Virus record (IMG/VR): IMGVR_UViG_3300010206_000020
Span: 1-51,331 of that record
DNA from: a virus
Taxonomy: Duplodnaviria; Caudoviricetes
Strand: one strand, 5' to 3'
Length of the DNA: 51,331 nucleotides
The stretch's first letter is position 1. Each line of letters starts with the position of its first letter. The translations under genes and the position numbers were made by a program. Below are positions 18,572 to 50,006 of the stretch, piece by piece. The notes under the pieces are model-generated. The model was not told where the DNA came from and made no database searches. It saw only the letters and a list, made by a program, of their open reading frames with translations.

Positions 18572-20203
18572 TTAGAAACCTCCGGCAGCTTTCTCGGCGG
18601 CGCGCTCAGCTGACCATTTATCGTTCTTCTTCATCCACGCCAGCGTCCCAAACGCCGGCCCCGCAGTCTTCTTCGGCGCCGCGTTGGCTCTAACCATCGT
18701 CTGCAGCAGCCGGCCGAAGATGCCGAGCGTGTCCGGCCACTCGTCGTGCAAGCCGTTCGGGAACGCGAGCAGCTCGTTAATGGCGCGCTCAACCCACGGC
18801 TTGCCTTTCGGCCAGAACACCTTGCCCATCGCAAAACGGCCGATGATCGGTTGCGCCCGAGCGACCTTGTCGCCGATCATCGGCAGCTCGCGCATGTTGA
18901 TATACGCCTCGCGCTCGTACATGCGCTTGCGCAGGAACGGCCCAATAGACTTGGTGATATGGTCGCGCTCAGCGCCCCACAGGATCGGCTTGTGGATCTG
19001 CGCCATGTCTAGCATGGCTTCAACTACGCGGTCGGTCGGTTGCTTCCGCCAGTAGCAATCGAGAATATACAGATTGCTCTGCGCGTCGACACCGGCGGCG
19101 ACGAGCAGCGAAGGGTCATTCCGCTCTTTGGCTTCCAGCGCGTGGTCCGAAGCGCAATAGACCCGCAGATTGTCGGGCGTGTCGTCGTAGTAGTTGACGT
19201 TCTCGCGCTTAAACAAATCGCCGTCGAGCGCGGACGGCCGCCCCTGGTACAGCGCCGCGAAGCCGGTCGGGTCGAGCGCCTGCATTTCCTTGAGATAGGT
19301 CAGGTCGAATTTGTCCGGGCCGTCCGGCCACAGCGGTTGCCCCGGCTTTCGACCGAGCGGGTCGTTCTCCTCGGCGATCGCTGCCATTTTGATGATCTTG
19401 ATACGCTTGGCGATCTCACGGTTGAAATACGGGTTCTCCGGGTCGGTCAGCCGCCCGATCGGGTCGTCGGCGTGCCAACGCGTGAACGTCATGATCACGA
19501 GCTTGCGGCCCTGCCGCCGAGTTAGCGCGACGCGCGTCAGCCAGTTCCAAGCCTGATCGCGGATCGCCTGGCTGGCCGCTTCCTTGTCATCCTTGATCAG
19601 GTCGTCGACGATCAGAAGATGCGCGCCGCGCCCGGTCAGTGCGCCGCCGCGGCCGACGAAGAACAGCAACCCGCCTTTCGTCGTTTTCAGCCGGTCTTTG
19701 GCCCCGCCGCCGCGCACGAGCCGCACCTCGGGGAATACCTGCTTGTAGGTGGGGCTGTGCATGATCGCGCGGACGTTGTCGCCGAAGTCCGCGGCAAACT
19801 CGTCGCTGTAGGTTGCGACTACGACGTTCTGATCCGGGAAACGCCCCGCGAACCACGCCGGCAGCTTGCGCGACACCTGTTCGGACTTGCCGTGCCGCGG
19901 CGGCTCGATCAGGATCAGGAACTCGATTTTCCCCTTCACCACTTCTTCGATCACGCGTGCGGTCGCGTCGTGGTGGCGAGCGTTCTTGTAGCTCGATCGG
20001 TCGGGGTCGTTCGGCGCTTCCGGATCGGGCGAGGTGTACTTGATGAACGGCATGAACCGCTCGCGAGCCTCGCGCGCCATCGCCTCGCGCCGCAGCAGCG
20101 CGACTTGCTGCGCGAGCTGCGAAACGCCGTCGTCCTTTTTGTTCGGATCGACGAACCCATAGCGCTTCCCCGTCATCGGGTTGATGCTAGTCGCGCGAGG
20201 CAT
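18572..20203 (-). CDS. terL: Terminase large subunit
   Basis: Walker A PPRHGKS, Walker B LLIVDD, YQGRP, nuclease motif FPNGLHDEWPD. Confidence 0.93.
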   Translation of the reverse strand: MPRATSINPMTGKRYGFVDPNKKDDGVSQLAQQVALLRREAMAREARERFMPFIKYTSPDPEAPNDPDRSSYKNARHHDATARVIEEVVKGKIEFLILIEPPRHGKSEQVSRKLPAWFAGRFPDQNVVVATYSDEFAADFGDNVRAIMHSPTYKQVFPEVRLVRGGGAKDRLKTTKGGLLFFVGRGGALTGRGAHLLIVDDLIKDDKEAASQAIRDQAWNWLTRVALTRRQGRKLVIMTFTRWHADDPIGRLTDPENPYFNREIAKRIKIIKMAAIAEENDPLGRKPGQPLWPDGPDKFDLTYLKEMQALDPTGFAALYQGRPSALDGDLFKRENVNYYDDTPDNLRVYCASDHALEAKERNDPSLLVAAGVDAQSNLYILDCYWRKQPTDRVVEAMLDMAQIHKPILWGAERDHITKSIGPFLRKRMYEREAYINMRELPMIGDKVARAQPIIGRFAMGKVFWPKGKPWVERAINELLAFPNGLHDEWPDTLGIFGRLLQTMVRANAAPKKTAGPAFGTLAWMKKNDKWSAERAAEKAAGGF

Positions 20204-20615
20204 TCGACGTCTTCTCCATGCGTTCCATGATGCGATCGAAACGCTGATCGATACGGTTGCCGAGCGCATCCATGCCGCGTTCGAGCCGCGTTACGACAAG
20301 CTCGAAACTACCCTTTCTGACAAACTCGTCGCGCGACCACGTCTCGAAATCCTGCACCTTCTGCCGGATCGCCGACGCAACCTCGCCGAACTCGCGCCGC
20401 GTCGTGTCGATCTTGTCGTCACGCTCGCGCTTGGCCGCGTCTATCTTCTCCGCGTGGTCCTCTTTCACTTCCTGAACCGCGGCCATGAAGTCTTTCCGGA
20501 TCTCCACTTCCGATGCCGACACAGCGCGCGTGATCTTCACCACCGCCGTAATGACGGTGGCGATCAGACCAACCACGGCGACGATCAGCATGATGGTCTG
20601 ATATTCTACGGCCAC
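20187..20615 (-). CDS. Membrane-anchored coiled-coil protein (lysis cassette)
   Basis: N-terminal TM segment then a charged coiled coil. Confidence 0.6.
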   Translation of the reverse strand: MAVEYQTIMLIVAVVGLIATVITAVVKITRAVSASEVEIRKDFMAAVQEVKEDHAEKIDAAKRERDDKIDTTRREFGEVASAIRQKVQDFETWSRDEFVRKGSFELVVTRLERGMDALGNRIDQRFDRIMERMEKTSNASRD

Positions 20616-20618
20616 CGC

Positions 20619-21233
20619 TTACTTCCTCTTTGTCGCGAGGGCGGACGTGACGGCCGACACGACGCCGCCGACCGGCTGGCCAGTAATCGCGGTTTGCCGC
20701 TCGTTGCTCCCGGTCCAAACGTGGATGCCGAGCACGCCGAAGCGAGCGCCCCACCACACCGTCAGCAGCGACGAAGCCGCGACCAGCTCACTGATCCGGC
20801 CGTCGAGGATGCACCACGCCAGCAGCGCGGCCCACAGCGGGCATTCGACCACCAGCTCGTAGGCCATGATCGTCCGCCACTGGCCCCACCAGTGATCCGG
20901 CATCGCCGCCTCGGCGGCGATCGCCTGGTTGACCGCCGTTATCTGCGTCTTGGCGACGTCGGCCTGCGCCTCGGCGAGCCTGGCGAGATACTCCCACTTC
21001 GCCGCCGCCTCGCTGTTGGCCTGCTCGAACGCGGCCTTCGCCGCGCCCGGGTCTGCCGCGATCGTGCTCTGCACGGTGCTTTCCGACACATTCGGCGCCA
21101 GGCCGAGCGCGCGTTTCAGCATCTGCCCCGCCTCGCCGGCGAGCGCCGGCACGCCGAGCGCCGCACCGAGCACAGGAAAACCCATGTCGATTGCCAGGCT
21201 TGCCGCCCAGCTCCATTTGCCGAGATCCACCAT
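20619..21233 (-). CDS. Holin-like membrane protein
   Basis: C-terminal TM segments after HWWGQWR; follows the endolysin gene. Confidence 0.55.
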   Translation of the reverse strand: MVDLGKWSWAASLAIDMGFPVLGAALGVPALAGEAGQMLKRALGLAPNVSESTVQSTIAADPGAAKAAFEQANSEAAAKWEYLARLAEAQADVAKTQITAVNQAIAAEAAMPDHWWGQWRTIMAYELVVECPLWAALLAWCILDGRISELVAASSLLTVWWGARFGVLGIHVWTGSNERQTAITGQPVGGVVSAVTSALATKRK

Positions 21234-21234
21234 G

Positions 21235-22089
21235 TCAGGCCACCTCTTGATCGACGGGTGCCGCGGCGGCCGGCTTGCGCTTTGCCGCCGGCTTATTGCG
21301 CTTCGGCTTCGCGGCCTTCTTCCGCGGGCGCTTCGCCTTGGCCGCTACCGCCTTCTTCCGCGGGCTCGTCGCGGCGACTTCGGGCAGGGAAGCGATCAGC
21401 GCGGCCAGCCCGGCGTTGTCGTCCGAGGCGGGCACGAGCAGCGTCTTGCGCGCCTGGTCGGCCGCGCGGCGGTGCAGGAAATACACCGCCGCGGCGGCAA
21501 GCCCCGCGACGACGAGCAGGACCGCGGCCGCGACCAACCATTGCGACACCGACCAACCTTGATGCGCGCCGGCCGTCACGGTGGCCGTGCCCGCGCCGAC
21601 GACGACGGCCGTTCCGGTCGACGCCGTGGTCGGCTTCACCGCCGGCTTGCCGAACACCTTCTGCTGCGCCTCGATCCAGTCACCGGCGGGCGCCGGATAG
21701 GGCTTGTTCGGCAGGCCCGCCTCGTGCTGAGCCTGCGCCTTCAAAAACTGGATACCCATCGGGCTATTCAGAAAGGCGTCGTTGATGATCGTCGCGCCTG
21801 TCATGCCCGGGACGCGGTCAGTGACGAACTTGACGTACGCAGCGGGCGAGTTGCCGCCCGACCAGACGCGGATCGCCTCGTCGAACCGCTTGTTCCGGTA
21901 CCGCGGCGTGCGCCACAGGTCGATCTGCGCGCAGATCCCGGCGACGAACGTCGGAAACACGGCGATATGGTTGCCCTGCCCGGTGCCGTCTTTCAGCGCG
22001 ACGTTGCCGACCTCGCCCCACTTCCGCGAGATCGCGTTGCCGCCCCACATTGCGCCGGGGTTCTTGTAGCGGACCGATGCAGGCTCCAT
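21235..22089 (-). CDS. Putative endolysin (lysozyme-like N-domain, C-terminal TM, basic tail)
   Basis: SVRYKNPGAM..FPT...G motif; hydrophobic WLVAAAVLLVVAGLAAAAVYFL; Lys-rich tail. Confidence 0.6.
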   Translation of the reverse strand: MEPASVRYKNPGAMWGGNAISRKWGEVGNVALKDGTGQGNHIAVFPTFVAGICAQIDLWRTPRYRNKRFDEAIRVWSGGNSPAAYVKFVTDRVPGMTGATIINDAFLNSPMGIQFLKAQAQHEAGLPNKPYPAPAGDWIEAQQKVFGKPAVKPTTASTGTAVVVGAGTATVTAGAHQGWSVSQWLVAAAVLLVVAGLAAAAVYFLHRRAADQARKTLLVPASDDNAGLAALIASLPEVAATSPRKKAVAAKAKRPRKKAAKPKRNKPAAKRKPAAAAPVDQEVA

Positions 22090-22117
22090 AGCGATTACTC
22101 CGTATTAGCGGGCAAGC

Positions 22118-23368
22118 TCACAGCTTAAGCTCCGCGTTCATGAAGGTTGACGGTTGCATGTTGTTGTGCGGCAGACCCCCGCCGACTTCCGACGTGGTGA
22201 ACGAGAACGAGTAGTAGTGCTCGTGATCGGTGTTCGTCGAAGTGGTGTAATCGGTCGTGTACCGATCGAACCAGAAGGCGCCGCCACCATCCGCCGTCAA
22301 GCCGAACGTCGCGCGCGAATACTGATGAGAGTGCGACGAGTTTCTAGTCATCGAGCCGGTGTATCCGGCGCCGCCGCCCGTGTGCGAATGCGCCGGGCTT
22401 TCGGTAAGTAACAACTGGTGCGTCTCGGCGCCGACGATGGCCGCGAGCTGTCGCGCGGTCAGCCCCGCGCCGATACCCGCAACGGCCAGCGCCCGGCCGA
22501 GGACACGCGGCAAAACCATGCGCCGGTGAGCGGCAAAGTCGGCGTCGGCCGACGCGCCCCGCGCCACGGTCGCGCCGGCGCTGTCCTGCACCGTCAACCC
22601 TATCGGCAGTGCGTACATCACCCTGAACAACGCGAGCGTGTCGTTGTTCGCTCTCGTGGTCGCGCCGGACGCCGCGTCGCCGATCGAACCGTCGTCGAGC
22701 ATTATCCAGCCAGCCTGCGCGATCTGTCTGTAAGTCAGCCGAACGTCGCCGGGCCCCCACGCGCTGCCGCCGATAGTGCTGTCGACATACTGCTTTGTGG
22801 CCGCGTGCGCCGCTGCCGTGGGCGGCCCGGCCAGCGTAAGCGCCCCCGTCATCGTGCCGCCCGCCAAGGCCAACGCGCCGAGGCGTTCGAGCGCGAGCGG
22901 CGGGTCGGTCAACCCGAGCAGGTTGTCAGACTTGAGCATGTCTCCGGAGCCGTCGCCGCTCGGCCCGGGCGGCCCCGCCGGAAGGTCAATGATGAAAACC
23001 CATTTGCCGGCGGCAAGGTCGAGCGAGAACGAAGACCCGGAGACGTGCGGCGCCGCCGCGCGATACAGTTTCCCGCTACGAAAAACATTCGCGTCGAGGC
23101 CGTAAGTTACGCCAGCGGCCCATGCACTGGCCGGTGCCAGGCCGGCGGTCTGCAGTTCGGCCGAAAGGCTGTCGTAGGTGACGATCCCGTTGTTCAACGC
23201 CCCGTCGGCGCGAATGACGTTCTGAACGAAGGCGCTGACGCTTTCGAGGCTGCCTTGTAAGCCCGCCAGGTCGTCGTCGATCTGCGTGCCGGGAAACGAA
23301 CTGCCCCCCTGCGAAATGGCAAAATCGGTGTAGCTGTAGGCTACGTTGTAGATGTTCGGGTAGGCCAC
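22118..23368 (-). CDS. Tail fibre 1 with tail-collar domain
   Basis: AATKQYVD, PGDVRLT..GWIMLD, GAETHQL...PAHSH and PHNNMQPS fibre motifs. Confidence 0.85.
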   Translation of the reverse strand: MAYPNIYNVAYSYTDFAISQGGSSFPGTQIDDDLAGLQGSLESVSAFVQNVIRADGALNNGIVTYDSLSAELQTAGLAPASAWAAGVTYGLDANVFRSGKLYRAAAPHVSGSSFSLDLAAGKWVFIIDLPAGPPGPSGDGSGDMLKSDNLLGLTDPPLALERLGALALAGGTMTGALTLAGPPTAAAHAATKQYVDSTIGGSAWGPGDVRLTYRQIAQAGWIMLDDGSIGDAASGATTRANNDTLALFRVMYALPIGLTVQDSAGATVARGASADADFAAHRRMVLPRVLGRALAVAGIGAGLTARQLAAIVGAETHQLLLTESPAHSHTGGGAGYTGSMTRNSSHSHQYSRATFGLTADGGGAFWFDRYTTDYTTSTNTDHEHYYSFSFTTSEVGGGLPHNNMQPSTFMNAELKL

Positions 23369-23481
23369 CGCCTGCGTCTTTCGTCGTCACGAATGGCGCA
23401 ATACTTATCATACACGGCGGACGCGAACAATCCTGCCCCTGACTGGGCTTAGCGCGGTGGACTGTCGGCTACGCGAGGCGT

Positions 23482-23742
23482 CTAGCCGCCTTGGCTGACC
23501 GGCGGGGCGGCCTTTTTGCCCGGCCTTCCTTCACGCCGCCCGGCCTCTCGTTCACGCCGGACAAGCTCGGCCTCTACAGCCTCACGAATGAACTTCGCCA
23601 TGCCACTGTCGCCTACCAGAGCGCGGATACGCGCCTTCGCCTCGCCCGATAGACGCACCTGCGTCGGCTTGATTCCCATCGGAGGCCTGCCCATGCGGCG
23701 AGCACTATCCGGTATCGGAAAGTCTGTCAAAATCGGCTCCAT
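23482..23742 (-). CDS. Ribbon-helix-helix DNA-binding protein
   Basis: MGRPP..KPTQVRLS....RIRALVG..GMAKFIREAVEAEL; true start may be the MGRPP-proximal Met. Confidence 0.7.
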   Translation of the reverse strand: MEPILTDFPIPDSARRMGRPPMGIKPTQVRLSGEAKARIRALVGDSGMAKFIREAVEAELVRREREAGRREGRPGKKAAPPVSQGG

Positions 23743-23783
23743 AAGCGATACCGCTTATTGACACGATAACCGATACCGTTTAT
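23741..23783. promoter_or_regulatory. Two operator palindromes flanking a TTGACA -35
   Basis: ATAAGCG-ATAC-CGCTTAT (23741-23758) and ATAACCG-ATAC-CGTTTAT (23766-23783); TTGACA at 23758-23763. Confidence 0.7.
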
Positions 23784-23837
23784 ATCTTCAACCATCAACT
23801 GACGGCGAGCCCCCACTTCACGACCGAAGCGAACCCA

Positions 23838-24038
23838 ATGACGATAGCTGCAATCCTGCTGACGCTTTTTGCCGTAGTGCTGATCGTATGGCTGAACCGG
23901 AGCGCCTGGCGGCTGAACCGGGATGGAAGCTGGCACTTTCACGGTGATGGCATGCGGCGCTTCGTCGGCGGCCGCTGGGAGCGGCGCGAAATGACCGAAC
24001 GCGAGCGCGCCGAACGGGAAGACTTCGTCAGCTGGTGA
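23838..24038 (+). CDS. Small membrane protein (moron)
   Basis: N-terminal TM IAAILLTLFAVVLIVWL; oriented against the late operon. Confidence 0.6.
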   Translation: MTIAAILLTLFAVVLIVWLNRSAWRLNRDGSWHFHGDGMRRFVGGRWERREMTERERAEREDFVSW

Positions 24039-24770
24039 CTACGGCGCTGTTACCCGCCTCAGAGCTGCCCTGACCCTGCTCGCGAGAACGGCCAACGTCG
24101 CCGGATCGGTGACGTGCTGCCCGTCGGCGCCGTAGGTCAGTGATGACAGCAGATTTCCAGACCCGTCGACAATGATGTCGTTGATCGAGACGAACTCGGA
24201 TCGCGACCGGACCGCGAGCAGGCCGGACAGGTACGCGTTGAGAGCGACTAGGTCCGACTTGATCCCTGACGTGGTCGAGGTCAGCGGATAGGCGGCGATC
24301 ATCACCAGCGGGCCGGTCAGATAGGCGAGGATCTTGTCGTAGTTGGCCTCGACGGTCGCCAGTGCGGCGCCGCCGGTGGTGTCGTTCTGCGACACCTGAA
24401 TGATCACGCCGCCGCAATTGCTGAGACAGGTCAGATCGGTCACGAGATGATTGACGTAGCCCGCGACCGTGTCGCCGCCGGCGGCAAACGGTACCGCGTA
24501 GGGCGAGAACATCGACACGTCGATCGCCTGCATCTGGCTATCGCCGATCACCGGAATGCAGCCGCCGCGGTACGCCAGCTCAGCCTGCTTGCGCTGAAAG
24601 CCGATCTTCTGCGACGTGTAGGTGGCCACCTCCGAATAGGACGGCAGCGACGGTACGGTTCCGGCCTTGCAGTTGTAGTTCTTCGGCCGCAGCAAGCGCG
24701 GCGCGGCGTCGGCCGCCACTGCGACCGTGACGCCGCCGCTTGGTGTCAGAGTGGTCGGGCTGATCGTCAT
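24039..24770 (-). CDS. SGNH/GDSL hydrolase
   Basis: Blocks IGDS, GGDT, QND and DGQH. Confidence 0.8.
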   Translation of the reverse strand: MTISPTTLTPSGGVTVAVAADAAPRLLRPKNYNCKAGTVPSLPSYSEVATYTSQKIGFQRKQAELAYRGGCIPVIGDSQMQAIDVSMFSPYAVPFAAGGDTVAGYVNHLVTDLTCLSNCGGVIIQVSQNDTTGGAALATVEANYDKILAYLTGPLVMIAAYPLTSTTSGIKSDLVALNAYLSGLLAVRSRSEFVSINDIIVDGSGNLLSSLTYGADGQHVTDPATLAVLASRVRAALRRVTAP

Positions 24771-26429
24771 TTAGGCCGACCACGTTTCGACGACGGCGCA
24801 GTGCTTGGCGCGCTTGTCGTTCGTGTACGTAAACTCGACGCAAACGCTCGACCCCGACGCCTGGCCGGACACGTCGATAACGGCCTCTATCAGCCGCCGC
24901 GAGCCGAGTTCAAAAAGCTGAGTGACAGACGTTGCGGTCGTCAGCGTCGTGCCGCCGTTGCGGCTCCCCTTGACGATGAGATCCGTCCCGAGCGTGATCG
25001 CGTCCACTGGCTCGACCACGAACAGCACTTTGATCTGCGCCGGCACAAAGTCGATCGCCTTGGTGACGGTCCGGATAATGGCGTCGTCAACGACCGGCGT
25101 CGCCTCGCCGAAGACCACCTGTGCGACGCAGGGCCGGTTGCCGGACGCGTCGCCAGTGTTCTTCACGTTCACCCAGCGGTGCAGCCAGGTGTTCGCGGTG
25201 TCGGTCGACGTGACCGTGCGGCCGGCGCTCTCATCGTTGGTGTTGGTGAACGACAGCGTCCCCAGCAGCACGCCGTCGGTCTCGTTGGCCGGCGCCGCCC
25301 CGGAGGCTTTGCCGTACAGTTCGAGCGTCGTCGCGTCGATATTGCTGGCCCCGGTCCAGAAACCCTTGTCGTTCGACCCGTAAACCTTGACGCGGCCGAT
25401 TTTCTTGGCCACCGCATCGGTGGTGCCGATGCTATCCGAGGTGTCGTTTGCGGCACCGTACAGCGATGTGGCGAACCCCCGGTTTGTCGTTCCGTCGAAC
25501 GCAACGGACGCGGCCAATGACCCGTTCTGGTCGAGCCCGAAGCGCCACGGCGTTCCCGTGCCGCCCGGAATATCGGCGATCGACACGCTGCTGGTGGTGT
25601 AGCCGACGTTCAGAACCTTGCCGGTCGGGTCCCAGGTGTAGCCGGAGGACGCTGCGCCGTTGACACCGTCATTTGACGCGTACCCGTCGGCCCAACCCTT
25701 GATCAAGTACAGCGCCGAGCCGAGCGACTTCGCGGCGCTAACCGCTGCAATCAAGGTCTGCCGAATGTCGTCGGGGCTGCTGCCCCCTCCGGCCCCGTCG
25801 GCGCCTTTTGCCGCGACTTTGAGCCACTTCCCCGCGGCGAGGTCCGTCGCGAACACCCCCGACACATGGTCGAGCAGCGCCGCGTAGGCTTCTCCGTTGA
25901 CCACCGCCACCGATCGCGGCGCCGTGGCGACGTAGTTCTGCCCCGTCGCCCAATTCACCGGCGCCGCCCACGCTGCCGGCCCCGCGACACCCTGCGGCCC
26001 TTGGTCCCCCTGTGCTCCGGTTTCGCCCGGCGGGCCGGCGGGTAGTACCGCAACCAGAACCCAGCGGCCCGCGGCCAAATCCACCGCGAACGACGCGCCC
26101 GAGGTGTGCGCGATCGCCGCCCGGTATAGCCCCTCGCCTGCTATGACGCCTTGCTGCAACGCGTAATCGACGCCGGGCGCCCAATTCATCGCCGGCGCCA
26201 GGCCCGCGGTCTGCAGCTCGGCCGAAAGGCTGTCGTAAGTGACGACGCCGTTTTGCAGCTTGCCGTCCGACCGCATGACGCCCTGAACGAACACCGCCAG
26301 GTTATGGACGCCAGCGCTCAGCCCAGCGAGGTCGTTGTCGACTTGCTGCCCCGGAAACGAGCCGTCGCCCTGCGCCGCCGAAAAGTCGGTGTAGCTGTAG
26401 CTCGGACTGTAAATTGACGGATACGGCAA
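24771..26429 (-). CDS. Tail fibre/spike 2 (paralogous N-terminal anchor, collagen-like linker)
   Basis: TTG start at 26429 aligns with the fibre 1 N-terminus; GPPGETGAQGDQGPQG; two W..G..Y...G..Y.A...H.SG modules. Confidence 0.8.
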   Translation of the reverse strand: MPYPSIYSPSYSYTDFSAAQGDGSFPGQQVDNDLAGLSAGVHNLAVFVQGVMRSDGKLQNGVVTYDSLSAELQTAGLAPAMNWAPGVDYALQQGVIAGEGLYRAAIAHTSGASFAVDLAAGRWVLVAVLPAGPPGETGAQGDQGPQGVAGPAAWAAPVNWATGQNYVATAPRSVAVVNGEAYAALLDHVSGVFATDLAAGKWLKVAAKGADGAGGGSSPDDIRQTLIAAVSAAKSLGSALYLIKGWADGYASNDGVNGAASSGYTWDPTGKVLNVGYTTSSVSIADIPGGTGTPWRFGLDQNGSLAASVAFDGTTNRGFATSLYGAANDTSDSIGTTDAVAKKIGRVKVYGSNDKGFWTGASNIDATTLELYGKASGAAPANETDGVLLGTLSFTNTNDESAGRTVTSTDTANTWLHRWVNVKNTGDASGNRPCVAQVVFGEATPVVDDAIIRTVTKAIDFVPAQIKVLFVVEPVDAITLGTDLIVKGSRNGGTTLTTATSVTQLFELGSRRLIEAVIDVSGQASGSSVCVEFTYTNDKRAKHCAVVETWSA

Positions 26430-26481
26430 GCCCCGGCCCTCGCGTCCTGAATTGCGCAATACATATCAGGCCACGGCGCAC

Positions 26482-26518
26482 AAGAAAAGGCCGCCCGGCG
26501 AGGCATCGCGGGGCGGCC
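26482..26518 (-). terminator. Rho-independent terminator of the Acb2/RyR operon
   Basis: Minus strand reads GGCCGCCC...GGGCGGCC-TTTTCTT. Confidence 0.75.
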
Positions 26519-26607
26519 GAAGTCAACGCTCGGGAGGAAACACCAATCACGGACCGCCAACCGTCAGAGGCTGGCGATCGCCTTTGTATCGCGCTGTATC
26601 CCGCGCG

Positions 26608-26850
26608 TCAACGGACGTGCGGAGGCTTCGGCGCCGGGTTCGTCAGCAGGAAGATCCGCGCGTGCTGCGCCATCATCAGCAGCTCAGCCTCGGCCAGTTC
26701 GCCGTCGCCGGCCGGGACTTGGATCGAGAACACCTGCTGGCCGTCGGCCTGCCGCACGGCGAGTAGTGACGGCACGTTCATGTCGACCGGCAGCACGGAC
26801 AGGCTCGGAACGTTCTCGTCGATCAGGCGCTTCGCTTTTTCCCAGTCCAT
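26608..26850 (-). CDS. Hypothetical protein, 80 aa
   Basis: GGAGG RBS; last gene of the four-gene operon. Confidence 0.65.
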   Translation of the reverse strand: MDWEKAKRLIDENVPSLSVLPVDMNVPSLLAVRQADGQQVFSIQVPAGDGELAEAELLMMAQHARIFLLTNPAPKPPHVR

Positions 26851-26856
26851 TTCGAA

Positions 26857-27099
26857 CTACCTCCCCTTCTTCATGGCGCGCGGTGACGCCGATCGGCGGG
26901 CCGGTGCAGCTTTGAACTCGCCGCACCAGCCGTTGTCGACCCCGACGATCGGGAATGCGCTCTTGCCGTCCAGCAGCGCGGTCGGCGGCCGTATCCGGCA
27001 CTGTCCGACCGCGATTTCGTTGCCGTCGTGGTCCTTGCCGGACCGCGGCAACAGATACACGTAGCGGCAGCGCCCACACGCGGCTTTCACCTCCGCCAT
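26857..27099 (-). CDS. Small Cys-rich (CxxC..C..C) protein, 80 aa
   Basis: MAEVKAACGRCRY...GQCRIRPP...FPIV...WCGEF; ATG at 27099. Confidence 0.7.
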   Translation of the reverse strand: MAEVKAACGRCRYVYLLPRSGKDHDGNEIAVGQCRIRPPTALLDGKSAFPIVGVDNGWCGEFKAAPARRSASPRAMKKGR

Positions 27100-27464
27100 A
27101 ACGTCGTCTCCGCGATCCCGAGCCCCGCGACGCAGGCCGCGACCACCGCCTTGAAGAGGTGATCCTTGACGCGCTGCTCGGGCGGCAGCTGGTCGAACGG
27201 CACGATGCAGGGGTGCAGCTTCTTCTCCGGGTCCTTCACCGGGCCGTAGGCCCAACCGTCGACTATCTTCTGCGCCATCCAACTGCTGTGATTGGCGCTC
27301 GCCGGCGCGTCGGGGTTCAGGATGCAGAACTCGACGCCCTTGATAGCGCTGTCCTTCTGCCATTGCGGCGCCAAGCCCCATTCGACCTGGCTGTGATCGT
27401 TGAACACCTTGCACAGTGCGCGATTTGCCTCGTGGCAAACGCTGGCAATCTCTTCTCGCGTCAT
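27087..27464 (-). CDS. RyR-domain protein
   Basis: HSSWMAQKIVDGWAYGPVKDPEKKLHPCIVPFDQLPPEQRVKD matches the RyR repeat consensus. Confidence 0.88.
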   Translation of the reverse strand: MTREEIASVCHEANRALCKVFNDHSQVEWGLAPQWQKDSAIKGVEFCILNPDAPASANHSSWMAQKIVDGWAYGPVKDPEKKLHPCIVPFDQLPPEQRVKDHLFKAVVAACVAGLGIAETTLWRR

Positions 27465-27476
27465 GCGTCGGCCTCC

Positions 27477-27737
27477 CTATTCCACCTGCTTGCCGTCTTC
27501 GGGCAGCTCGACGCGGCCCGGCCGGAAGATCGCGCGGTTGAGCGCCATGAAGCCCTGCTCGATCTGCGTTCGGGCGATCGCCAGCCAACGGTGGTTGACG
27601 TCCAAACGGCCGTTAAGGTCGTCGATCACGCGCAAGACGCGCTCTTCGTCCTGCTTGTTGGCGTTGACGAGTTCGACAGCTTTGTCGCTCTGCGGTTTGT
27701 AGCCTGCGACGGGCAGGCCCGGGTGTTTGTCGGCCAT
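27477..27737 (-). CDS. acb2: Acb2-like cyclic-oligonucleotide sponge (anti-CBASS family)
   Basis: GYKPQS...VNANK...RWLAIARTQIEQGFMALNRAIFRP parallels Acb2 GYR.LS...N..K...RWLAI.KT.IQ.G.MA..RAIAQP as recalled; GAGGA RBS. Confidence 0.8.
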   Translation of the reverse strand: MADKHPGLPVAGYKPQSDKAVELVNANKQDEERVLRVIDDLNGRLDVNHRWLAIARTQIEQGFMALNRAIFRPGRVELPEDGKQVE

Positions 27738-27787
27738 TTCGGGGTCCTCGTGATTGCGGTTACACCGCCTGCGGCGATGTATTCCAC

Positions 27788-27815
27788 GTATCTCACGAGT
27801 GACATACACCGTCAA
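27788..27815 (-). promoter_or_regulatory. Promoter/operator of the Acb2 operon
   Basis: TTGAC on the minus strand at 27811-27815; near-palindrome GTATCTCACGAGTGACATAC at 27788-27807. Confidence 0.6.
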
Positions 27816-28139
27816 GGCGTCGCGCTCGGGGCTTGCTGATGCGGCGGCGCGCCTCGGCGGCCGATTAACTCCGAAGTCTGGTTAGCCCGCGCGAGCCGTT
27901 TCCCAAATTCGGATTTTCGGGCGCAATTTTGTGTGGGTGCTCGACGGCGTCCGCGGCTCAAGCGGCAAACCGTACCCCGGGGGTCGGGTCCGGCCTCCGG
28001 GCGGGAGCCCGGGCGCCGTCGAGCGCCCCGGCGTCGAGGCTCAATCGCCTGGAATACTATCAGGCATATTCACGCAAAGCCCGTATTTGCTGGGGTCCCG
28101 CAGTTATAGCCAGCAGTTTTGCGCGCTACCCGGCGCGCC

Positions 28140-28613
28140 TCAATCGAAGATGCCGGCGCCTGGCGCGGCGATCGGCGCCGGTTCGTGGTCAATCACCTTC
28201 GCCGCGGCCATGCGCTCGGATAGCAGCCGCTCCGCCTCCGCGAGCAGCTCCCGGACCTTCTCCGCCGGCATTTCCGCCAAGTCCTCGGGCGACAGCGCAT
28301 TGCCGCCCGCGATGCCCGACAGCTGAACCAGCGCTTTCGCGGCCATGCCGCGCGTTGAGCCCTTCTGCAGTTTGTCACTCGCCAGCTCTATTAGCACGCC
28401 GACGCCGATTTCAGCGCCTTCGGTGCGCAAGCGGTGCTGCGCCTGGCGCCTGATCTCCTCTTGCACCTCGGGCCGCTGCAGCGCCTGCGAGGCGCGTTTT
28501 TCCGGCGACGCGTAGCCCGCGCGCGTCGCCGAATAGACCTTATCGCCGGTTCGCGCCATTTGCTTCGCAAACTCCCGTTCCATCGGTGTAATCGCGCCTT
28601 TTTTGAGCTTCAT
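28140..28613 (-). CDS. terS: Terminase small subunit
   Basis: TPMEREFA......SATRAGYA.....ASQALQRPEVQEEI HTH typical of TerS; ends GIFD. Confidence 0.75.
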   Translation of the reverse strand: MKLKKGAITPMEREFAKQMARTGDKVYSATRAGYASPEKRASQALQRPEVQEEIRRQAQHRLRTEGAEIGVGVLIELASDKLQKGSTRGMAAKALVQLSGIAGGNALSPEDLAEMPAEKVRELLAEAERLLSERMAAAKVIDHEPAPIAAPGAGIFD

Positions 28614-28728: not shown

Positions 28729-28765
28729 TTGACAGTAGAATACAAATGACATACAAACGGCATAC
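28729..28765 (+). promoter_or_regulatory. Early promoter with ATAC repeats
   Basis: TTGACA-N17-TACAAA; ATAC at 28740, 28751 and 28762. Confidence 0.65.
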
Positions 28766-39416: not shown

Positions 39417-39445
39417 TTTGTATGTCACTCGTATGCCATTGTCAA
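39417..39445 (-). promoter_or_regulatory. Promoter with operator-like motif
   Basis: Minus strand TTGACA-N17-TACAAA containing ACGAGTGACATAC. Confidence 0.65.
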
Positions 39446-48131: not shown

Positions 48132-48340
48132 GTATTACGTTGTATGTCACTCGTTCGGAGCGGTCAAGTATATTATGCCTAGATCACGCCTGGCGTCCAC
48201 TAGGATTTTTATCCGAATTTTCGATGAGCAAATTTGATCGTCGGAACTTTGTGGAACGCGATTGACCGAGCGTGTTTCGTATGCTATCGCCGGAATACAA
48301 GAGGCATACGGTGATGGCATATCGAATGCCATACGTATTG
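48132..48340. promoter_or_regulatory. Immunity region with divergent promoters and GTAT/ATAC operator-like sites
   Basis: Minus strand TTGACC-N17-TACAAC with ACGAGTGACATAC; plus strand TTGACC at 48262; GTATG-N10-AATAC at 48279-48298. Confidence 0.65.
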
Positions 48341-48350
48341 CGAGGCAAAG

Positions 48351-48785
48351 ATGGCGAAGTCGTACCGAACACACCTATCCCCCGCCGAGGCGCCCATGCC
48401 GAAGCTGATCCCGAAGCACCTTGCGAAGGACGAGTTCGCGCGCCGGCTGCTGCAGTTGATGCGCCGCAGGGGCTGGCGCCAAGCGGAGTTCGCGCGGCAG
48501 GCCGGGCTCACGCGCAACGCGATCTCGGTCTATCTGCGCGGCGACAGCCTGCCGAACCCCGACAGCCTGCAAAAGCTGGCCGCCGCGCTCGGCATGAAGG
48601 CCGAGGAGCTGCTGCCGAATTACAAAGAGGCGGCGATCGAGCGCGACAACCCCGAGCTTGAATTTCGCGTCTCGCCGGCCGAGCCCAAGACGGCTTGGCT
48701 CCGCATCAATCGGGCTATGCCGACGTCGCTGGCGATCAAGATCATGGGGCTGATTGAAGCGCATGACGCTGCCGAGACAACTTAG
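48351..48785 (+). CDS. XRE-family HTH repressor
   Basis: FARRL...RGWRQAEFARQAGLTRNAISVYLRG.SLP....LQKLAAALG. Confidence 0.88.
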   Translation: MAKSYRTHLSPAEAPMPKLIPKHLAKDEFARRLLQLMRRRGWRQAEFARQAGLTRNAISVYLRGDSLPNPDSLQKLAAALGMKAEELLPNYKEAAIERDNPELEFRVSPAEPKTAWLRINRAMPTSLAIKIMGLIEAHDAAETT

Positions 48786-49065
48786 CGAGGCCGAGGCCGC
48801 CGAGATCCTCAACGTGTCCGTTGGCACGGTCCGACGTCTCCGCCACCGCGGCAAGCTCGGCTACACGCCAGGGCGCCCGCCGCGGATCGGCGAAGACGAC
48901 ATTGAGCTTTACCTAAGGTGTATCAAATGCCGACCTACAGCCTACGACAGCATGACAACGGAACTTGGTACGTCCACTGGTCAGAAGGACGACGAAGCCG
49001 CCGCGTCAGCACTGGCGCGAAGAAAGAGGCTGCAGCGCAGGTTTTCCTCGCGGAATGGATCTTAG
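48763..49065 (+). CDS. xis: Excisionase-like HTH_17 protein
   Basis: LSEAEAAEILNVSVGTVRRL...GKL......RI. Confidence 0.75.
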   Translation: MTLPRQLSEAEAAEILNVSVGTVRRLRHRGKLGYTPGRPPRIGEDDIELYLRCIKCRPTAYDSMTTELGTSTGQKDDEAAASALARRKRLQRRFSSRNGS

Positions 49066-50006
49066 GTGGCCAACAGGAAGCTGCCGGCGGCGCGCTCGAT
49101 CTCACGGTGGCCGACCTTTGGGCGCAGTATTTCGAGCAGCACGTCGAAAAGAACTACATGACCGCCCGCCCCGCCGAGGTGGCGTGGAAGAACCTCGCCG
49201 TGCATTTCGCGGCGCTCAAACTTCCGGACTTCGTCAAGAAAGATGCCGACGGCGCCGACAAGGTCGAGCAATACGTGAAGCTGCGCGCCTCGGGCAAGAT
49301 CGGCCGGCGCCCGGCGGCGCGGGCGACGATTCGGTACGAGGTCGCCACGCTGAAAGCGTGCCTGAACTGGTGCGCGAAGCCGAAGGTTGCGATTATCAAG
49401 CCCGGCGCGGTGCCGGCGATCGACCTACCGCCGGATAGTGAGCCCCGCGACCGCTGGCTGCGCGCCGACGAGCTGAAAGCGCTGATCAGCGAAGCCGGCA
49501 AGCGTCGGCCCGGCGCGCGGCTGTCCGGGGCCGAGGTGTTTACCTGGCTCGCGCTGGAAACGGCCGCCCGGATGCAGGCCATTCTCGACCTGACTTGGGA
49601 CCGCGTCGACCTTGAAGCCGGCTTGGTGCATTACAACGTGCCGGGGCGCCGGAAGACGAAGAAGCGCCGCGTAAGCGTCCCCATGTCCAAGGCGCTGCGG
49701 CCGGTCCTGGCGCGCGCCTACGGCGAGCGCGACGGCGATCGCGTGGCCAACATCACGGCGTCGACCGCGGCCCGGCACCTGGCGGCGATCGCCGCCCGAG
49801 CGGGTGTTGACGGCGTCACGCCGCACGTCTTGCGGCACACCGCGGCGACGCACATGCTGCGGCGCGGTGTGGCGATCTGGATTGTTGCCGGCGTCCTCGG
49901 CGACACGGTCGAGACGGTTCAGAAGGTTTACGGCCACCATTGCCCCGAGGGGCTGGCCGACGGCGTGGAAATGATCTCGGGCGGCATTTTGGAGTTGGCA
50001 GAATGA
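48927..50006 (+). CDS. int: Tyrosine integrase
   Basis: TAAR, KTKK, HVLRHT, LGD (in place of LGH), catalytic VYGH. Confidence 0.93.
   Translation: MPTYSLRQHDNGTWYVHWSEGRRSRRVSTGAKKEAAAQVFLAEWILGGQQEAAGGALDLTVADLWAQYFEQHVEKNYMTARPAEVAWKNLAVHFAALKLPDFVKKDADGADKVEQYVKLRASGKIGRRPAARATIRYEVATLKACLNWCAKPKVAIIKPGAVPAIDLPPDSEPRDRWLRADELKALISEAGKRRPGARLSGAEVFTWLALETAARMQAILDLTWDRVDLEAGLVHYNVPGRRKTKKRRVSVPMSKALRPVLARAYGERDGDRVANITASTAARHLAAIAARAGVDGVTPHVLRHTAATHMLRRGVAIWIVAGVLGDTVETVQKVYGHHCPEGLADGVEMISGGILELAE

Follow-up and report, generated by a model that had tools for sequence, protein, structure and literature searches.

The complete virus record IMGVR_UViG_3300010206_000020 (Caudoviricetes; 51,331 bases, approximately 65% GC; hereafter the window) carries a group of four small genes which, as a whole, is best explained as a discrete cassette with which a temperate phage would counter bacterial defences (probability about 0.75). 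In this cassette, a putative sponge of the Acb2 family (encoded by g1) and a putative sponge with a ryanodine receptor (RyR) domain (encoded by g2) would act against the cyclic oligonucleotide-based antiphage signaling system (CBASS) and against Thoeris, respectively. The cassette consists of four tightly packed genes on the minus strand (27737-26608) and is bracketed by a promoter/operator-like element and a terminator.

The genes, all of which lie on the minus strand, were delimited as g1 (27737-27477; 86 amino acids from ATG; Acb2 family), g2 (27464-27087; 125 amino acids; RyR/R12-domain protein of the RyDEP/RyR Tad family), g3 (27099-26857; 80 amino acids; four-cysteine protein with the pattern CxxC..C-R-x-x-PP..WCGEF) and g4 (26850-26608; 80 amino acids; a near-orphan for which an alpha-beta-beta-beta-alpha fold is predicted). 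Only 12 nucleotides (nt) separate g1 from g2 and 6 nt separate g3 from g4, and g2 and g3 overlap by 13 nt, the start of g3 lying inside the end of g2. Shine-Dalgarno boxes GAGGA, GGAGG, GGAGA and GGGAGG precede the four ATGs by 7-9 nt (GAGGA 7 nt ahead of the g1 ATG). The GC content at third codon positions (GC3) was 0.85-0.86 for g1 to g4 (0.85 in g3 and 0.86 in g4), compared with 0.82 in terL and 0.875 in the major capsid gene, whereas codon-position GC was flat (0.63-0.67) in the 402-nt gap in front of g1 (27738-28139). This indicated that all four genes are coding, since their GC3 is as high as that of terL and the capsid gene. The four closely spaced genes described in a first-pass annotation, which had been made from the sequence alone, were thus confirmed by coordinates, Shine-Dalgarno boxes and GC3.

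The g1 protein matched the profile PF24729 (Acb2_Tad1_hairpin) over its full length (positions 1-58 of 58) with an E-value of 3.3e-19 and 69.3 bits, far above the cut-off of 27. Solved Acb2 structures of Pseudomonas phages (8h2j/8ixz, E 1e-4) and Vs.4 of T4 (7uq2, E 0.02) were matched as well. Comparison with Acb2 of phage PaMx33 revealed that the cyclic-dinucleotide pocket is kept in g1 (Y13 and K28, corresponding to Y11 and K26 in PaMx33), as is the cyclic-trinucleotide pocket, which varies within the family (R50 and T57, corresponding to R67 and T74); A53, I54 and P73 of g1 align to A70, I71 and P90. Mutation of pocket residues in PaMx33 Acb2 is reported to abolish or weaken the binding of cyclic GMP-AMP (cGAMP) or cyclic triadenylate (cA3) (PMC10312549; 10.1101/2025.08.24.671296). 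On the basis of the hidden Markov model (HMM) match, the solved relatives and the aligned pockets, g1 is assigned as an Acb2 homologue, in agreement with the Acb2-like sponge of the first-pass annotation. According to one of these studies, a minority of Acb2 homologues bind 3' cyclic ADP-ribose (3'cADPR) instead of CBASS signals, and one of them, Acb2_43, does so via residues of an extra N-terminal beta-strand (10.1101/2025.08.24.671296). If g1 were such a variant, both sponges of the cassette would target Thoeris. This seems quite improbable, as both pockets are retained in g1, that for cGAMP with its Tyr, Lys and Pro and that for cA3 with its Arg and Thr, whereas Acb2_43 is described as relying on its extra strand.

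With 40.1 bits, the match of the g2 protein to the Pfam RyR profile PF02026 (E 4.5e-10) exceeded the cut-off (27.4), so the RyR domain named for it earlier was recovered. Further matches were phrog_5154 (E 1.1e-41) and, in the Protein Data Bank (PDB), Repeat12 domains from ryanodine receptors of animals (E down to 2e-21). Its similarity to the active C-terminal domain in gp68, the RyR Tad encoded by Pectobacterium phage vB_PatP_CB1, amounted to 52% identity over 107 residues (E 8e-39). RyR Tad gp68 is described as a dimeric sponge for 1''-3' glycocyclic ADP-ribose (1''-3' gcADPR); the C-terminal domain by itself is enough to inhibit type I Thoeris, its dissociation constant (KD) for 1''-3' gcADPR is 43 nM, and mutation of six residues (H129, W132, K147, H154, K170, and D171) weakens binding (10.64898/2026.06.04.730250). 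These residues align to H59, W62, K77, H84, K100, and D101 in g2, all of which were invariant in an alignment of 28 homologues. The g2 positions are also spaced as H75, W78, H100, and D117 in RyDEP of mycobacteriophage DyoEdafos, a protein reported to be a glycosidase opening 2' and 3' cyclic ADP-ribose (2'/3'cADPR) (PMC13232231). These similarities assign g2 to the RyR/R12-domain anti-Thoeris family. Both studies are 2026 preprints in which RyR-domain proteins of phages are reported either to cleave 2'/3'cADPR or to sequester it (PMC13232231; 10.64898/2026.06.04.730250). They bear out the connection to ADP-ribose (ADPR)-derived signals that the first-pass annotation had made, but the degradation it had in mind appears to be the less likely mode for g2.

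The mode of g2 is not readable from its sequence, because sponge-type and glycosidase-type members have the same residues. Cleavage would mean that g2, like RyDEP, hydrolyzes the ribose-ribose bond of 2'/3'cADPR to yield linear ADPR and has no sponge role. The RyDEP catalytic dyad H75/D117 indeed corresponds to H59/D101 in g2 with identical spacing (+42), W78 and H100 have their counterparts too, and this was the mechanism named in the first-pass annotation. However, the same residues occur in sponge homologues, and in gp68 H129 and D171 serve binding. Eight further RyDEP homologues were tested, of which six bound the signals and none cleaved them; in the available text of that preprint, cleavage is reported only for the DyoEdafos protein (PMC13232231). 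In addition, g2 is far nearer to gp68 (E 8e-39) than to a 139-amino-acid "RyR domain-containing protein" (chain 35tm_A, E 1.4e-10), and a search for the ADPR-using NARP1 genes (Adps, Namat) beside g2 found none, unlike in DyoEdafos. A glycosidase is therefore considered unlikely, and sequestration is the better bet for g2, favoured roughly 3 to 1 over cleavage because of the closeness to a proven sponge, the lack of cleavage by all eight other homologues and the absence of neighbouring NARP1 genes.

Sequence comparison placed a prophage of Rhodopseudomonas pseudopalustris as the nearest relative of the phage. In the nearest related loci (L088/L090), the terS-like, terL and portal proteins are 80%, 77%, and 81% identical to those of the window. 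The layout of L088 is as in the window, but only RyR, g3 and g4 are present (62%, 48%, and 49% identity, respectively), and the same RyR-g3-g4 cassette was found in L151, a prophage of R. pseudopalustris DSM 123. A DNA alignment with the window shows that L088 lacks approximately 230 nt, a stretch running from around Acb2 codon 19 to around RyR codon 4. In L088, the Acb2 start and the first 18 or so codons (MSEHEGLPAGG..., compare MADKHPGLPVAGY... in the window) are fused in frame to RyR, giving a protein of 133 amino acids (L088 6851-7252) that is the same in L090, L140, and L151. Because a remnant of Acb2 is fused in frame to RyR, the four-gene state is ancestral and Acb2 was lost in the lineage of the relative.

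On its downstream side the cassette is closed by a strong intrinsic terminator (26482-26518, minus strand) with GC-rich 13-nt arms (26489-26501 and 26506-26518; 12 of 13 positions, 92%, paired), a 4-nt loop and UUUUCUU on the transcribed strand. The 3' arm and the T-tract are conserved in L088. The site is also flagged by the scanner, although terminator-like sites in this 3-kb region did not outnumber those in shuffles (3 against 2.7 expected). With hairpin and U-tract both in place, the cassette's own terminator, as annotated earlier, was corroborated. On its upstream side lies a promoter/operator-like element of 31 nt (27815-27785, minus strand; TTGACG-GTGTATGTCACTCGTGA-GATACG-TG). It comprises a -35 box TTGACG matching the consensus at five of six positions (27815-27810), a 17-nt spacer and a -10 candidate GATACG (27792-27787), with TG present beside the latter. 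The spacer contains the 14-mer TGTATGTCACTCGT (27808-27795), and the palindrome GTATGTCAC-TC-GTGAGATAC (27807-27788; 20 bp, 9-bp arms complementary at eight of nine positions, 2-bp spacer) has no second copy in the window and did not arise in any of 100 shuffles. In L088, 29 of the 31 bases are identical, whereas the flanking leader diverges. The element is thus real, and its conservation suggests that it is functional even though no promoter was called there. From this anatomy and conservation we infer that the four genes are co-transcribed from a promoter of their own. A search for sequencing runs containing the stretch listed a single DNA run, labelled freshwater metagenome and possibly the source of this DNA, and no RNA run.

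Exactly three copies of the 14-mer are present in the window (27795-27808, 39419-39432, and 48141-48154); 100 shuffles yielded none. A further copy, at 28742-28755, deviates at two positions. Besides the g1 element, these copies belong to three early-promoter-like sites of the form TTGACA/C-17 nt-TACAAA/C (28729-28757, plus strand; 39445-39417 and 48167-48139, minus strand), in which the reverse complement of the motif supplies the spacer and the -10 box (core GTGACATACAA; ATGACATACAA at 28729-28757). The sites face DUF932 (28729-28757), the genes after the DNA polymerase gene (39445-39417) and the leftward genes by the CI-like repressor (48167-48139), the last one adjoining the HTH_3 Cro/C1-type gene, the HTH_17 gene and the integrase gene. 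The three sites are probably the early promoter/operator set of the phage. The motif at g1 is read as a shared operator or early-promoter signature, and early, repressor-controlled expression of the cassette is predicted.

The leader between the terS-like gene and g1 (27738-28139, minus strand) is non-coding, with flat codon-position GC, and several of its blocks are conserved in the relative (L088 6475-6850), for example CACACAAAATTGCGCCCGAAAATCCGAATTTGGG at 27935-27902; the AAATCCGAATTTG part of a leader block is duplicated there. Rfam and tRNA scans of the window, leader included, found no Rfam family and no tRNA.

The comparison of the genomic setting covered 49 terL-related loci. A terS-like gene was found in 16 of them (15 by tblastn and one by eye), some of which are near-duplicates (L115/L116/L128; L127/L137). 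The slot behind this gene holds a recognisable sponge gene in 5 of the 16 loci: RyR once (L090), the Acb4 family (PF13876; 10.1101/2024.12.30.630793) twice (L091, L098), and Acb2 twice (L095, L112). An HNH gene or unknown open reading frames (ORFs) take its place in the remaining loci. Judged by these contents, the slot is an anti-signalling hot spot, and the upstream neighbour of the cassette, itself only weakly terS-like, marks it in related phages. Small proteins that carry an HExxH-like motif (HEVIH, HECVH) and match no Pfam family are encoded in this slot in L127 (4335-4658), L137 (2905-3228) and L126 (6886-7251); their genes are possibly further accessory or counter-defence genes.

Clustering of sponge genes was also seen from the side of RyR. 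Among 150 ORFs neighbouring RyR genes in 42 loci (same strand, 50-230 amino acids, within about 900 nt of RyR; seven duplicate loci and two ORFs left out), PF24729 was the commonest Pfam family (four ORFs), and PF13876 was found in two. Conversely, RyR lies directly downstream in 2 of 37 Acb2 loci. A tblastn search with g1 against 50 RyR loci detected no Acb2, but it was too insensitive, as Pfam found the four hairpin ORFs among the neighbours. Among 61 genomes sampled from the host family of the relative, SMODS (the CD-NTase domain) exceeded the cut-off in 10 and ThsB_TIR in 13, and the host of the relative itself carries one SMODS gene. CBASS and Thoeris are thus plausible targets of the cassette, since both domains occur in this host family.

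For g3 and g4, neither Pfam nor PHROG nor NCBIfam yielded a family match, and tblastn against 50,697 phage records gave no match; the label of two unknowns given to them earlier was apt. A word-indexed search with g3 returned g3 alone. A full HMMER scan with g3 and its L088 homologue (48-49% identical) retrieved 46 proteins at E <= 1e-3, mostly of 60-82 amino acids. In an alignment of 40 sequences, C8, C11, C34, and C59 were invariant, and the motif C-R-x-x-P-P ... W-C-G-E-F was invariant or nearly so. The AlphaFold2 model of g3 is beta-rich (predicted local distance difference test score, pLDDT, 81). Foldseek found nothing in the PDB at E <= 0.001, the best non-significant rows being the gamma and beta subunits of benzylsuccinate synthase (E 0.6-1.2), which are small four-cysteine iron-sulfur subunits; unnamed clusters of the ESM Atlas (0.92) pointed likewise to subunits of this type. 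It is a reasonable guess that g3 is a metal-binding mini-protein. In L150 (3015-3629), a g3-type four-cysteine module forms the C-terminal part of a 204-amino-acid protein with a cysteine-rich N-terminal region.

Homologues of g4 were limited to 4 proteins in 5.8 billion, that of the window included. Its alpha-beta-beta-beta-alpha model is confident (pLDDT 86; predicted template modeling score, pTM, 0.71). Foldseek found nothing in the PDB or BFVD at E <= 0.001; the nearest rows, all short of significance, included an NFS1 chain (E 0.04) and also HicA (E 0.12), and ESM Atlas scores were 0.80 or below. Taken together, g3 represents a widespread, undescribed family of small phage four-cysteine proteins, probably metal-binding, and g4 is its lineage-restricted neighbour. 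The idea that g3 or g4 is a free-standing version of the gp68 N-terminal domain was rejected at the sequence level, as BLASTP gave no meaningful alignment and PHROGs no hit.

In the proposed mechanism, the cassette, which lies in the variable slot after the terS-like gene and ends at its own terminator, would probably be turned on together with the early genes once the phage infects or is induced, and stay silent in the lysogen. This timing is proposed because the 14-nt core is also present in the early-promoter-like sites, one of which lies beside the CI-like repressor gene. The g1 protein would form a hexamer, holding CBASS cyclic dinucleotides of the 3',3'-cGAMP type in its Tyr/Lys pocket and taking up cyclic trinucleotides of the cA3 type in its Arg/Thr pocket. 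A dimer of g2 would capture the Thoeris signals 3'cADPR and 2'cADPR, most likely as a sponge and less likely as a glycosidase; RyR-domain dimers are described as assembling back-to-back through helices 1 and 4. Jointly, g1 and g2 would blunt two unrelated signalling immune systems. The g3 (four-cysteine, probably metal-binding) and g4 (alpha-beta3-alpha) genes would be translationally coupled to g2 and are co-inherited with it, with further counter-defence or an accessory function as the best guess for their role. The first-pass annotation had conceived the cassette as one unit neutralising several nucleotide messengers; the family assignments of g1 and g2 speak for this, but g3 and g4 are without a link to such signals.

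Several points weigh against the counter-defence cassette as described here. The activities of g1 and g2 are predictions from sequence, and the specificity of g1 is not certain, since some Acb2 homologues bind 3'cADPR. Acb2 is also dispensable, as the relative does without it. Among all loci retrieved, profile HMMs put g3 and g4 next to RyR in just two places, the window and one R. pseudopalustris prophage, so that their connection to counter-defence is one of position and coupling. On the regulatory side, 27785-27815 was not among the promoters called by a sigma-70 consensus scan (hexamers 16-18 nt apart; A as the second and T as the sixth base of the -10 box). The -10 candidate GATACG matches at three of six positions, lacks the final T and is poor by Escherichia coli rules. 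The 14-mer at g1 is inverted relative to the other two exact sites and lies between the two boxes of the promoter candidate on the sense strand; instead of an operator, it may represent an early promoter copied in antisense and since decayed. Finally, a canonical terminator was not detected directly after the terS-like gene, which makes read-through from upstream possible.

The points on g3 and g4 lead to a more modest view of the cassette, in which only g1 and g2 counter immunity and g3 and g4 are unrelated, co-inherited cargo, such as a small metal-binding regulator or DNA-binding protein and its partner. The chances of this view are about even. Members of the g3 family were found elsewhere in phages of 40-64% GC, in a setting of replication-type genes and other small genes, with neither RyR nor Acb2; g4 is restricted to four proteins, and neither of the two matches the fold of a known sponge. 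Nevertheless, g2 to g4 are tightly coupled, the order RyR-g3-g4 is kept in the relative (cassette proteins 48-62% identical, structural proteins 77-81%), the slot is otherwise occupied by sponges, and in a comparable hot spot the non-sponge inhibitors Bes1 and Bes2 are reported to adjoin a sponge (10.64898/2026.06.04.730250). The opposite extreme, in which g3 and g4 are new counter-defence proteins acting alongside or with the RyR sponge as non-sponge inhibitors like Bes1/Bes2, and the loss of Acb2 was perhaps selected by a sponge-sensing defence such as Panoptes, is regarded as unlikely.

The regulatory points raise the possibility that the cassette has no promoter of its own, being read through from the promoter of the terS-like gene, and that the 31-nt element is what remains of the phage's early promoter type, or an antisense copy of it. 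The uncalled promoter and the lack of a strong hairpin with T-run right after the terS-like stop codon fit this possibility, and the copy at g1, when read in the same direction as the others, is TTCCAC-17-TACACC, which resembles TTGACA-17-TACAAA in degenerate form. On the other hand, the sense strand has a good -35 box TTGACG at the right distance and TG one base before the -10 candidate, the 31-nt block is the best-conserved stretch of the 400-nt leader in the relative, and an untranslated gap of 402 nt inside an operon would be unusual. Read-through as the sole source of expression is therefore rather doubtful, and a promoter belonging to the cassette itself remains preferred. Of the TTGAC promoter and palindromic operator named in the first-pass annotation, the TTGACG box and the unique palindrome are both present, but the consensus scan did not support the promoter.

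The phage is temperate. It encodes an integrase (48918-50006), a CI-like repressor of the HTH_3 Cro/C1 type (48351-48785), an HTH_17 excisionase-like protein and RusA. The window further contains structural genes (terL, major head protein, tail proteins) and a replication module (family A DNA polymerase, primase-helicase, DUF2800, SNF2 helicase). The terS-like gene upstream of the cassette (28613-28140, minus strand) was recognised with Terminase_2 (E 1.3e-4, below cut-off) and PHROG terS (E 1.6e-4). The downstream neighbour, which begins approximately 50 nt beyond the terminator, is tail-fibre-like (phrog_5073, E 3.1e-5). The position between terS and the tail fibres given previously is therefore retained, with a weak match on the terS side. 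About 8 kb separate the terS-like gene from terL (18572-28613, minus strand); the interval contains the cassette, the tail-fibre genes and a gene that weakly resembles a holin (20619-21233; GTA_holin_3TM, E 3.5e-4, below cut-off). This order is unusual, yet it recurs in relatives. A 562-amino-acid tail-fibre protein (24771-26459, minus strand) and a 416-amino-acid tail protein (22118-23368, minus strand) share the same N-terminal match of about 130 residues in the fibres of relatives, and they look like two fibres with a common anchor domain and different distal parts.

The cassette represents a credible, largely expected counter-defence island, and g1 and g2 are new members of published families. 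The stacking of sponges in hot spots has also been published (10.64898/2026.06.04.730250). Our search of the literature on RyR-domain phage proteins and Acb2, which covered main texts, found no paper on this cassette or on the g3 family. Modestly new are the place of the hot spot in this phage lineage, behind the terS-like gene, a natural Acb2 deletion that keeps the reading frame, the putative operator common to early promoters and two conserved unknown genes as test candidates. The cassette offers a clean natural example of sponges against CBASS and Thoeris stacked in one small, probably early-expressed unit, and it extends the 2026 findings on RyR-domain proteins to temperate alphaproteobacterial phages. 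The hot-spot position can be mined for inhibitors, and the Acb2-deletion variant in the cultured strain R. pseudopalustris DSM 123 can be used for comparison.

Among known systems, the Acb2 proteins of PaMx33/JBD67 (8H2J/8IXZ) and Vs.4 of T4 (7UQ2) share with g1 a single helical-hairpin domain of about 90 amino acids (PF24729), and the Acb2 of PaMx33 also shares the Tyr/Lys dinucleotide and Arg/Thr trinucleotide pocket residues. The g1 protein differs in being shorter (86 amino acids), in its alphaproteobacterial host and in its low similarity to the solved proteins outside the last helix (phmmer E 1e-4). For g2, the closest known systems are RyR Tad gp68 and, grouped with it, the sponge-type RyDEP homologues H4 and H7 described in PMC13232231. 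The g2 protein shares with gp68 the R12/RyR domain, at 52% identity over 107 residues, and all six ligand-contacting residues. However, the N-terminal beta-sheet domain of gp68 is absent from g2, and g2 belongs to a temperate phage and lies by packaging and tail genes, whereas gp68 lies in an N4-like replication-region hot spot. RyDEP of DyoEdafos belongs to the same Pfam family, with His, Trp, His, and Asp kept at identical spacing, but g2 is without neighbouring NARP1 genes and its similarity to actinophage-type members appears much lower. At the level of the whole cassette, the nearest counterpart is the anti-signalling hot spot of Migulavirinae/N4-like phages, which is reported to hold Acb4-Sequestin, Bes1, and Bes2 (10.64898/2026.06.04.730250). 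Both are fixed slots with varied inhibitors of signalling immunity, in which sponges stand beside small proteins of unknown mechanism. The slot described here belongs to another phage lineage and another position, after the terS-like gene and before the tail fibres, and its cassette has a conserved operator-like element at one end and a terminator at the other.

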